Source of the DNA: Escherichia coli
GTDB taxonomy: Bacteria; Pseudomonadota; Gammaproteobacteria; Enterobacterales; Enterobacteriaceae
Length of the DNA stretch: 11,286 bases
Direction: 5' to 3' (one strand)
Assembly (NCBI RefSeq): GCF_003334765.1
Contig: NZ_QOWT01000056.1
The position numbers were made by a program, and so were the translations under genes. Below the pieces are notes generated by a model, which saw only the letters and a list, made by a program, of their open reading frames with translations, was not told the DNA's origin and did not search any database. Positions 5,393 to 7,765 of this stretch are shown here, piece by piece; within the stretch, counting starts at the first letter, position 1; each line of letters opens with the position of its first letter.

Positions 5393-7765
5393 ATGAAGCG
5401 AGTTCTTATTCCTGGCGTCATTTTATGTGGCGCTGATGTGGCGCAGGCCGTCGATGACAAAAACATGTACATGCATTTTTTTGAAGAGATGACGGTCTAT
5501 GCTCCTGTCCCTGTACCCGTAAACGGCAACACGCATTACACCAGTGAAAGCATCGAGCGTTTACCGACCGGGAATGGCAATATCAGCGATCTGCTGAGAA
5601 CCAACCCTGCGGTACGCATGGATTCAACGCAAAGTACCTCGTTGAACCAGGGAGATATTCGCCCTGAGAAAATCTCTATTCACGGTGCGTCGCCCTACCA
5701 GAATGCCTATTTGATTGACGGTATTAGTGCAACTAATAACCTGAACCCAGCGAATGAGTCCGATGCCAGTAGTGCAACCAATATTAGCGGGATGTCACAG
5801 GGGTATTATCTTGATGTCAGCTTACTGGACAATGTGACGCTTTATGACAGTTTTGTGCCGGTTGAATTTGGTCGCTTCAATGGCGGGGTAATTGATGCAA
5901 AGATCAAACGCTTCAACGCTGATGATAGCAAGGTGAAATTGGGTTATCGCACTACGCGTTCGGACTGGTTAACATCGCATATCGATGAGAATAACAAGAG
6001 CGCATTTAATCAAGGCTCTTCAGGAAGTACTTATTACTCCCCAGATTTTAAAAAGAACTTTTATACCTTGTCGTTTAATCAGGAACTCGCTGATAACTTC
6101 GGCGTTACCGCCGGTTTATCGCGCCGCCAGTCTGATATCACCCGCGCGGATTATGTTTCGAATGACGGCATTGTCGCCGGTCGGGCACAGTATAAAAACG
6201 TTATCGATACTGCATTAAGCAAATTTACCTGGTTTGCCAGCGACCGCTTTACCCACGATTTAACCTTAAAATATACCGGCTCCAGCCGTGATTATAATAC
6301 CAGCACCTTCCCGCAGTCTGATCGCGAAATGGGTAATAAATCCTATGGTCTGGCATGGGATATGGATACGCAGCTCGCATGGGCCAAACTGCGTACCACC
6401 GTTGGTTGGGATCATATTAGTGATTATACCCGTCACGATCATGGCATCTGGTACACCGAACTTTCATGTACATATGGTGATATTACAGGGCGTTGCACCC
6501 GTGGCGGATTAGGACACATTTCCCAGGCTGTAGATAATTACACCTTCAAAACACGCCTGGACTGGCAAAAATTCGCCGTGGGTAATGTTTCGCATCAACC
6601 CTACTTCGGCGCGGAATACATCTATTCCGATGCGTGGACTGAACGCCATAACCAGTCTGAATCCTATGTGATTAATGCTGCCGGAAAGAAAACTAACCAT
6701 ACCATTTACCATAAAGGTAAAGGCCGCCTGGGAATTGACAACTACACGCTGTATATGGCGGATCGCATTAGCTGGCGTAATGTGTCATTAATGCCCGGCG
6801 TGCGGTATGACTATGACAACTATCTGTCAAACCACAATATCTCCCCGCGCTTTATGACGGAATGGGATATTTTTGCTAATCAAACCTCAATGATTACAGC
6901 AGGTTATAACCGTTACTATGGCGGGAATATTCTTGATATGGGATTACGTGATATCCGCAATAGCTGGACGGAATCGGTATCAGGTAATAAAACTCTGACG
7001 CGTTATCAGGATTTGAAAACGCCTTATAACGATGAACTGGCAATGGGATTGCAGCAGAAAATCGGTAAGAACGTTATTGCGCGTGCAAACTATGTTTACC
7101 GTGAAGCGCATGATCAAATCAGCAAAAGCAGTCGTACCGACAGCGCGACTAAAACCACCATTACTGAATATAACAACGATGGCAAAACCAAAACGCATTC
7201 GTTCAGCCTCAGTTTTGAACTGGCCGAACCCCTGCATATCCGCCAGGTAGATATTAACCCACAAATTGTCTTTAGCTATATCAAGAGCAAGGGCAACTTG
7301 TCGTTAAACAATGGTTATGAGGAGAGCAATACCGGTGATAACCAGGTGGTTTATAACGGTAATCTGGTCTCTTACGATAGCGTTCCAGTGGCAGATTTTA
7401 ATAACCCATTAAAGATCTCCTTAAACATGGATTTCACGCATCAACCGAGCGGGTTAGTGTGGGCGAATACGCTGGCCTGGCAAGAAGCGCGTAAAGCTCG
7501 CATTATCCTTGGTAAGACAAATGCGCAATACATCAGCGAATATTCAGATTACAAGCAGTATGTTGACGAAAAACTGGATAGCAGCCTGACCTGGGACACC
7601 CGCTTGTCCTGGACGCCACAATTTCTGCAACAACAAAACCTGACGATCAGTGCCGATATTCTCAATGTACTGGATAGCAAAACCGCTGTTGATACAACGA
7701 ACACCGGTGTGGCGACCTACGCCAGTGGCCGTACTTTCTGGCTTGATGTCAGCATGAAATTTTAA
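5393..7765 (+). CDS. yddB: TonB-dependent receptor-like outer-membrane beta-barrel protein, 790 aa
   Basis: GGAGA Shine-Dalgarno at 5379-5383. N-terminal signal peptide MKRVLIPGVILCGADVAQA. TonB-box-like EEMTVYA near the mature N-terminus, followed by a plug-like region. The rest is rich in alternating aromatic/polar beta-strand sequence and ends in a C-terminal Phe (SMKF), the usual barrel-assembly signature. The 790-aa length matches my recollection of YddB. Confidence 0.9.
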   Translation: MKRVLIPGVILCGADVAQAVDDKNMYMHFFEEMTVYAPVPVPVNGNTHYTSESIERLPTGNGNISDLLRTNPAVRMDSTQSTSLNQGDIRPEKISIHGASPYQNAYLIDGISATNNLNPANESDASSATNISGMSQGYYLDVSLLDNVTLYDSFVPVEFGRFNGGVIDAKIKRFNADDSKVKLGYRTTRSDWLTSHIDENNKSAFNQGSSGSTYYSPDFKKNFYTLSFNQELADNFGVTAGLSRRQSDITRADYVSNDGIVAGRAQYKNVIDTALSKFTWFASDRFTHDLTLKYTGSSRDYNTSTFPQSDREMGNKSYGLAWDMDTQLAWAKLRTTVGWDHISDYTRHDHGIWYTELSCTYGDITGRCTRGGLGHISQAVDNYTFKTRLDWQKFAVGNVSHQPYFGAEYIYSDAWTERHNQSESYVINAAGKKTNHTIYHKGKGRLGIDNYTLYMADRISWRNVSLMPGVRYDYDNYLSNHNISPRFMTEWDIFANQTSMITAGYNRYYGGNILDMGLRDIRNSWTESVSGNKTLTRYQDLKTPYNDELAMGLQQKIGKNVIARANYVYREAHDQISKSSRTDSATKTTITEYNNDGKTKTHSFSLSFELAEPLHIRQVDINPQIVFSYIKSKGNLSLNNGYEESNTGDNQVVYNGNLVSYDSVPVADFNNPLKISLNMDFTHQPSGLVWANTLAWQEARKARIILGKTNAQYISEYSDYKQYVDEKLDSSLTWDTRLSWTPQFLQQQNLTISADILNVLDSKTAVDTTNTGVATYASGRTFWLDVSMKF

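Follow-up and report, generated by a model that had tools for sequence, protein, structure and literature searches.

The closest described counterpart of the locus analysed here is the Fus system of Pectobacterium, whose ferredoxin receptor FusA (PDB 4ZGV/9RHR) is the closest solved homologue of YddB (phmmer E=4e-78, Foldseek TM 0.84, about 25% identity). The TonB box of FusA reads DTILVRST; proline substitutions there abolish ferredoxin import, and in vitro ITC measured binding of the receptor's N-terminal region to two C-terminal domains, that of FusB and that of the housekeeping TonB (Wojnowska & Walker, PMC7593965). FusB is a TonB homologue encoded in the Fus cluster, and it grips the cargo too; Pectobacterium cannot import ferredoxin without it, the housekeeping TonB being insufficient (PMC7593965). 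According to a 2026 study (PMC13253070), the first acidic residue of the box (D53 in FusA, D6 in BtuB) forms a salt bridge with an Arg of FusB or TonB.

The classical TonB-dependent transporters (TBDTs) of E. coli, namely FepA, CirA, BtuB and FhuA, have in common with YddB a signal peptide, a plug, a 22-strand barrel and a C-terminal Phe, together with a box lying within about 6-18 residues of the mature N-terminus. Their folds match that of YddB with Foldseek E values of 1e-34 to 1e-43, but sequence identity is merely 10-14%, and YddB, unlike them, escapes PF00593 and NCBIfam. The extracellular pocket of YddB is also much larger (about 28 A, which fits a small protein; PMC6793856). In transducers of the FecA/FpvA type an N-terminal STN signalling domain precedes the TonB box, as it does in several homologues of the YddB family, whereas E. 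coli YddB has no STN domain and its box follows 11 residues after the signal peptide.

The window (the whole stretch of E. coli DNA analysed, 11,286 nucleotides) contains five genes, ydeN, ydeM, yddA, yddB and pqqL, all in the same orientation. The open reading frame at 5393-7765 (plus strand) is yddB and encodes a 790-aa protein; its first 56 codons (YddB residues 1-56) occupy positions 5393-5560, and this region very probably encodes the N-terminus of the precursor of a FusA-like TonB-dependent outer-membrane transporter. The yddB DNA is 100% identical to that of E. coli strain H3, as is the whole stretch 5300-7800, and its ATG at 5393 lies directly 3' of an in-frame TAA (5390-5392). The neighbouring genes and sites are the following.

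455-2170, plus strand: ydeN, sulfatase-like (open reading frame)
2207-3379, plus strand: ydeM, anaerobic sulfatase maturase-type radical SAM protein (open reading frame)
3666-3684, plus strand: Fur-box-like site, overlapping the yddA start codon, bearing on operon regulation
3670-5355, plus strand: yddA, fused ABC permease/ATPase with an SbmA/BacA-like membrane domain, homologue of FusD (open reading frame, NCBIfam, RefSeq annotation)
5379-5382, plus strand: Shine-Dalgarno sequence GGAG, 10 nt upstream of the yddB ATG (read from the sequence)
7810-10605, plus strand: pqqL, periplasmic M16 metalloprotease, homologue of FusC (open reading frame, annotation; the RefSeq start is 7822)

As in the Fus system, the partners of the FusA-like transporter are a protease of the M16 family (FusC/PqqL) and an ABC transporter resembling SbmA (FusD/YddA), the set being encoded here by the contiguous genes yddA-yddB-pqqL on one strand. 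The Fus cluster also encodes FusB, whereas the E. coli cluster has no TonB homologue of its own, and none of its neighbours (ydeN, ydeM and gadB) encodes a TonB_C protein. In the RefSeq annotation of strain H3, yddA is an 'ABC transporter ATP-binding protein/permease', yddB a 'TonB-dependent receptor plug domain-containing protein' and pqqL an 'M16 family metallopeptidase', with gadB next after pqqL. YddA matched the NCBIfam models PRK12369 and SbmA, both under the curated cut-offs. PqqL is an active periplasmic M16 protease with the mature N-terminus AALPQD, as determined by sequencing, and the iron proteins tested were left uncleaved by it (PMC6793856).

The three genes yddA, yddB and pqqL form an operon that is co-transcribed and derepressed in a fur mutant. 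No site in the window matches the 19-bp Fur consensus better than the one at 3666-3684 (15/19), and the putative Fur box published for the operon (PMC3855560) is its reverse complement. Between ydeM and yddA, no terminator candidate satisfied the criteria of the scan, and the number of promoter-like sites (3 found vs 1.9 expected) was not above chance. Within yddB, the features below were delimited.

5393-5449, plus strand: Sec signal peptide, residues 1-19 (MKRVLIPGVILCGADVAQA), predicted cleavage AQA/VDD (n-, h- and c-regions, -3/-1 rule)
5450-5482, plus strand: variable mature N-terminal tether, residues 20-30 (entropies of 3.2-3.8 bits, many gaps; pLDDT <50)
5483-5503, plus strand: predicted TonB box EEMTVYA, residues 31-37 (sole pattern match in YddB, conserved columns, FusA spacing)
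5534-5878, plus strand: Plug domain, Pfam PF07715, residues 48-162 (E=1.3e-6; 6OFR; AF2 model)
5930-7762, plus strand: transmembrane beta-barrel, residues about 180-790 (22 strands in 6OFR; AF2; DSSP)
7736-7762, plus strand: C-terminal beta-signal FWLDVSMKF, ending in Phe (aromatic last residue, conserved motif)

The membership of YddB in the TBDTs is already known and was settled by the crystal structure of 2019. PDB 6OFR (Grinter et al. 2019, PMC6793856), which comprises YddB residues 29-790 and differs from the window in one residue, shows at 2.4 A a 22-strand barrel occluded by an N-terminal plug, and the outer-membrane localisation of YddB was reported with it. The AF2 model that we computed from a 31-sequence alignment (pLDDT 85.3) superimposes on 6OFR with TM 0.91/0.95 and on FusA (4ZGV) with TM 0.84; after these two, the Foldseek matches were all TBDTs, including the BtuB:TonB complex 2GSK. 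DSSP counted 21-23 long strands after residue 175 of the model, depending on the threshold, which is compatible with 22. The initial annotation had proposed a polar region that could form a plug, an aromatic last residue, and a 22-strand barrel with a plug as opposed to a smaller, plugless one; the Pfam Plug match, a terminal residue that is F here and F, Y or W in 31/31 homologues (with a conserved GR.[FYVIL]WL motif), and the agreement of 6OFR with the AF2 model bear it out on all these points. Pfam found the Plug alone and no match of the barrel to PF00593, and the NCBIfam scan of YddB returned 0 families; the missed barrel reflects a sensitivity limit of sequence models for the divergent FusA/YddB clade and is no structural exclusion.

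The annotated Sec signal peptide with cleavage at AQA/VDD likewise held up, as a prediction: an n-region MKR (+2), an h-region VLIPGVILCGA and a c-region DVAQA are present, and in a scan with the -3/-1 rule the site after A19 was the only one that conforms and keeps the h-region at full length. We infer from this sequence pattern that YddB is cleaved by signal peptidase I after A19, and the mature protein would then begin with VDDKNM. The N-termini of 31/31 homologues are signal-peptide-like, with AxA-type sites at the same place, and a search for a twin-arginine motif in the YddB N-terminus found none. Sites after residues 12-14 were rejected, as they would leave an h-region of merely 4-6 residues, and a lipoprotein reading of the signal-peptide Cys12 was rejected for want of a lipobox. 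In the construct used for crystallisation, F29 is the first YddB residue and follows a PelB leader (PMC6793856); F29 as a cleavage site was rejected too, with H at position -1 and the PelB leader in front marking it as a construct boundary. Whether the mature protein starts after A19 or at F29, the heptad EEMTVYA stays in it.

The initial annotation had likened this heptad to a TonB box of the pattern acidic-T-x-V-x-A; the likeness stands and the pattern does not, because nothing in YddB matches the literal motif [DE]T.V.A. In its place we used the heptad in its classical form, [DE]-x-[ILMV]-[ITV]-V-x-[AG]; EEMTVYA fits it, as do BtuB DTLVVTA, FhuA DTITVTA, FepA DTIVVTA and CirA ETMVVTA (the N-terminal sequences of the classical TBDTs were checked against PDB chains, with the alignment displayed for FhuA alone), so that YddB and the classical TBDTs share a box of the form [DE]-x-hydrophobic-[ITV]-V-x-A. 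In identity EEMTVYA agrees with the classical E. coli boxes at 2-4 of the 7 positions (4/7 for CirA) and with the FusA box at 1 of 7. Position 2 is Glu where the classical E. coli boxes have Thr, and position 6 is Tyr. The form occurs once in YddB and twice among the 22,568 six-frame residues of the window. Among 20,000 composition-preserving shuffles of YddB, 2.2% contained it anywhere and 0.085% within residues 20-50. Given cleavage after A19, the box would comprise mature residues 12-18, exactly as in FepA, and it lies near the mature N-terminus and upstream of the plug.

Conservation was assessed in an alignment of YddB with 30 full-length homologues of 25-86% identity (31 sequences). The segment between signal peptide and plug is otherwise unalignable (entropies of 3.2-3.8 bits with many gaps), whereas the columns of the heptad stand out in it: position 35 has V in 29 and I in 2 of the 31 sequences (0.35 bits, the same as I54, the best plug column), 30/31 have A or G at position 37 and 27/31 have V, M, I or L at position 33, while position 31 varies among P, E, D and S. 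In the homologue P0024, which is 57% identical to YddB, the box reads DTMVVTA. The alternating pattern is, as far as sequence can tell, what should be seen in a strand that would pair edge-on with TonB. In the homologues P0038-P0041, P0043, P0044 and P0052 an STN domain (PF07660) lies ahead of the aligned heptad.

The position of the heptad agrees with FusA as well. DTILVRST corresponds to chain residues 54-61 of 4ZGV_A, and its first residue lies 27 residues upstream of the P in the plug motif PTGNG; E31 of YddB lies 27 residues upstream of P58 of the same motif. Given this equal spacing, the boxes of YddB and FusA are positionally homologous without gaps, and they pair as D/E, T/E, I/M, L/T, V/V, R/Y and S/A, which places Glu of YddB at the box position whose acidic residue forms the salt bridge in FusA and BtuB. 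FusA differs from YddB in having about 50 additional residues ahead of the box. EEMTVYA is, judged by sequence, a genuine TonB box, because it is unique in YddB and rare in shuffles, is conserved, and has the spacing of FusA. Such a box is an expected, conserved feature of the family, which was not explicitly described in the literature searched: the term 'TonB box' occurs 0 times in the paper on the 6OFR structure, where tonB was not tested (PMC6793856), and the literature search found no TonB-dependence experiment on YddB or on the novobiocin phenotype. Locating the box adds little new biology but gives precise experimental handles on a protein that is among the few remaining orphans of the TonB-dependent transporters in E. 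coli K-12 and that contributes to the fitness of UPEC in systemic infection.

In the crystal, the heptad (6OFR chain residues 3-9) is presumably at least partly ordered, since 758 of the 762 deposited residues have coordinates in the Foldseek copy (809 of 868 for FusA). In the AF2 model residues 1-40 have pLDDT <50, as would be expected for a signal peptide and a flexible tether. We also modelled with AF2 a single chain in which a (G4S)6 linker joins YddB 20-48 to TonB 151-239 (without a positive control, from an arbitrarily paired alignment of 27 rows); the TonB domain was folded (pLDDT 76-84, on a shallow TonB alignment of 64-100% identity) and the YddB peptide was an undocked coil (pLDDT 41-46).

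E. coli K-12 is known to have only one TonB. We infer that this housekeeping TonB is the partner of YddB, since no FusB-like gene is present in the locus. The proposed mechanism would start with a cut by signal peptidase I after A19 that removes the Sec signal peptide (residues 1-19) and would leave mature YddB with a short flexible tether bearing the box E31-A37, 10 residues before the plug domain. Ligand binding might expose the box, by analogy with BtuB, FhuA and FusA; the exposed box would pair as a beta-strand with TonB's C-terminal domain, and ExbBD together with the proton-motive force would pull on the plug and open the channel. The cargo, proposed to be a small iron-containing protein, might then be cleaved by periplasmic PqqL and the cleavage products moved inward by the SbmA-like ABC transporter YddA. 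Tentatively, YddB, which has a conserved TonB box and lacks a partner of the FusB type, may be energised by the housekeeping TonB alone, and novobiocin entry through YddB would then be active TonB-dependent uptake and not 'porin' diffusion; the reading as a whole is possible though rather doubtful. If true, TonB would energise the entry of an aminocoumarin antibiotic by way of YddB, and the orphan transporter would gain its first tractable assay. Of some interest is the way in which a protein importer of the FusA class would function with no TonB of the FusB type.

Alternatively, the heptad might be a true ancestral TonB box in an E. coli system that is not productively energised or is decaying, after loss of the dedicated FusB-type partner that transporters of this class would need for pulling a protein cargo through. 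The need of ferredoxin import in Pectobacterium for FusB, and not the housekeeping TonB (PMC7593965), would fit such a loss, as would the lack of a TonB-like gene in the window and in the flanking annotation. Deletion of yddB caused no growth defect under iron limitation in LB (PMC6793856), and insertions of IS1, IS4 or IS5 interrupt yddB in several complete genomes. However, the first 168 nt of yddB are present in 4607 of the 5426 complete E. coli genomes, and about 4600 of the 5426 have an intact yddB of at least 95% identity; the operon is induced >30-fold in urine, and mutants in yddB and in pqqL are less fit during systemic infection by UPEC. Furthermore, the FusA N-terminus binds the C-terminal domain of the housekeeping TonB in vitro as well (PMC7593965), and in distant relatives from the Orbaceae and Pasteurellaceae the trio is retained with no TonB gene next to it, so that a cluster-encoded TonB is no general requirement. 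We consider this alternative improbable.

Still less support can be given to the idea that YddB is a porin specific for a substrate such as novobiocin and works passively, with a heptad that has no energising role. The proposal goes back to the 8-fold higher novobiocin MIC of a yddB mutant, complemented by pBAD-yddB, which Choi & Lee (2019, PMC6503746) read as passive transport through a 'specific porin', a label repeated in later reviews. That study did not test tonB (PMC6503746), the pore is occluded by the plug in the crystal structure (PMC6793856), the fold of YddB matches TBDTs only, and a TonB-box column as conserved as the best plug columns among sequences of 25-86% identity would be hard to explain if the segment were useless. 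Passive diffusion of novobiocin through YddB is unlikely because of the plug and the conserved TonB box, and we regard a porin with an idle heptad as very improbable; the box speaks against describing YddB as a 'passive novobiocin porin', a label now passed on from review to review. That EEMTVYA, in an unstructured N-terminal tail, resembles a TonB box by mere chance, as the 2-4 of 7 identities to classical boxes, the missing literal acidic-T-x-V-x-A pattern and the low AF2 confidence over the segment might suggest, is practically excluded because the column pattern of the heptad is conserved in 31/31 homologues, and the rarity of the pattern within residues 20-50 of the shuffles and the PTGNG spacing shared with the validated FusA box speak against it too.

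For the preferred reading, in which the housekeeping TonB serves YddB, three homologous loci were inspected, and no TonB-like gene was seen beside any of them. In an Orbaceae genome and in Muribacter muris the ABC transporter, the TBDT and the M16 protease are together as in E. coli, and in the third locus the TBDT adjoins a cytochrome c peroxidase instead, an arrangement that was remarked on in the 2019 paper (PMC6793856).

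Within the YddB/FusA family, the region ahead of the TonB box is variable. A subset of the homologues (P0038-P0041, P0043, P0044 and P0052) carries an N-terminal STN domain (PF07660) before the box; these STN-bearing proteins are FecA-like transducers whose signalling partner may be an ECF sigma/anti-sigma pair. If so, expression would be regulated in those lineages. In many YddB-family homologues of alignment A1 (YddB and 30 full-length homologues), a Cys-x5-8-Cys pair precedes the TonB box by 3-10 residues (P0019, P0024, P0031, P0032, P0034, P0045, P0046, P0047 and P0050; e.g., CQSSDENC, CDDKDKNC and CRPESPDSC), at a place that would correspond to about 5450-5482 in the window. 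The pair suggests a small disulfide loop. The YddB proteins of E. coli and E. fergusonii in this alignment are without the pair. To our knowledge, no role has been described for a Cys pair at this position.

Over residues 29-790, the YddB of the window differs from the crystallised BW25113 protein (6OFR) only at codon 351 (6443-6445), which encodes Gly in the window and Asp in the structure. Among the matches to other complete E. coli genomes (H2-H9), several have yddB broken by IS1, IS4 or IS5/IS903B, and the split gene is annotated as two TonB-dependent receptor fragments with a transposase between them.

YddA (3670-5355) is FusD-like with an SbmA/BacA-type membrane domain, and an importer role has been assumed from such a domain. 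A 2020 paper (PMC9728188) reports that YddA, as an ABC transporter, carries out multidrug efflux, which conflicts with that assumption. Transport by YddA may run in either direction. Two candidate regulatory sites lie at the start of the gene:

3628-3657, promoter-like TTGCCA-18-CACAAT with an extended TG, just upstream of the Fur-box-like site
3666-3684, match to the Fur consensus (15/19, the best in the window), overlapping the yddA start codon

The latter has already been published as a putative Fur box (PMC3855560). The spacer of the former includes GATAATCATT; in the promoter scan, promoter-like sites were no more numerous than expected by chance.

The longest pqqL ORF begins at ATG 7810 (MEIIMRNL...) and the RefSeq start is at 7822 (MRNL...); the mature N-terminus of PqqL obtained by sequencing, AALPQD (PMC6793856), is compatible with both.

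Upstream of yddA, ydeM is intact in the window:

2207-3379, ydeM, intact ORF of 390 codons

Its product scored 505 bits against the NCBIfam anaerobic sulfatase maturase model (cut-off 349). The annotation of E. coli strain H3, which otherwise matches the window identically over yddB, treats ydeM as a SPASM-domain pseudogene carrying a frameshift and places a small gene, yneP, on the opposite strand at the end of it.
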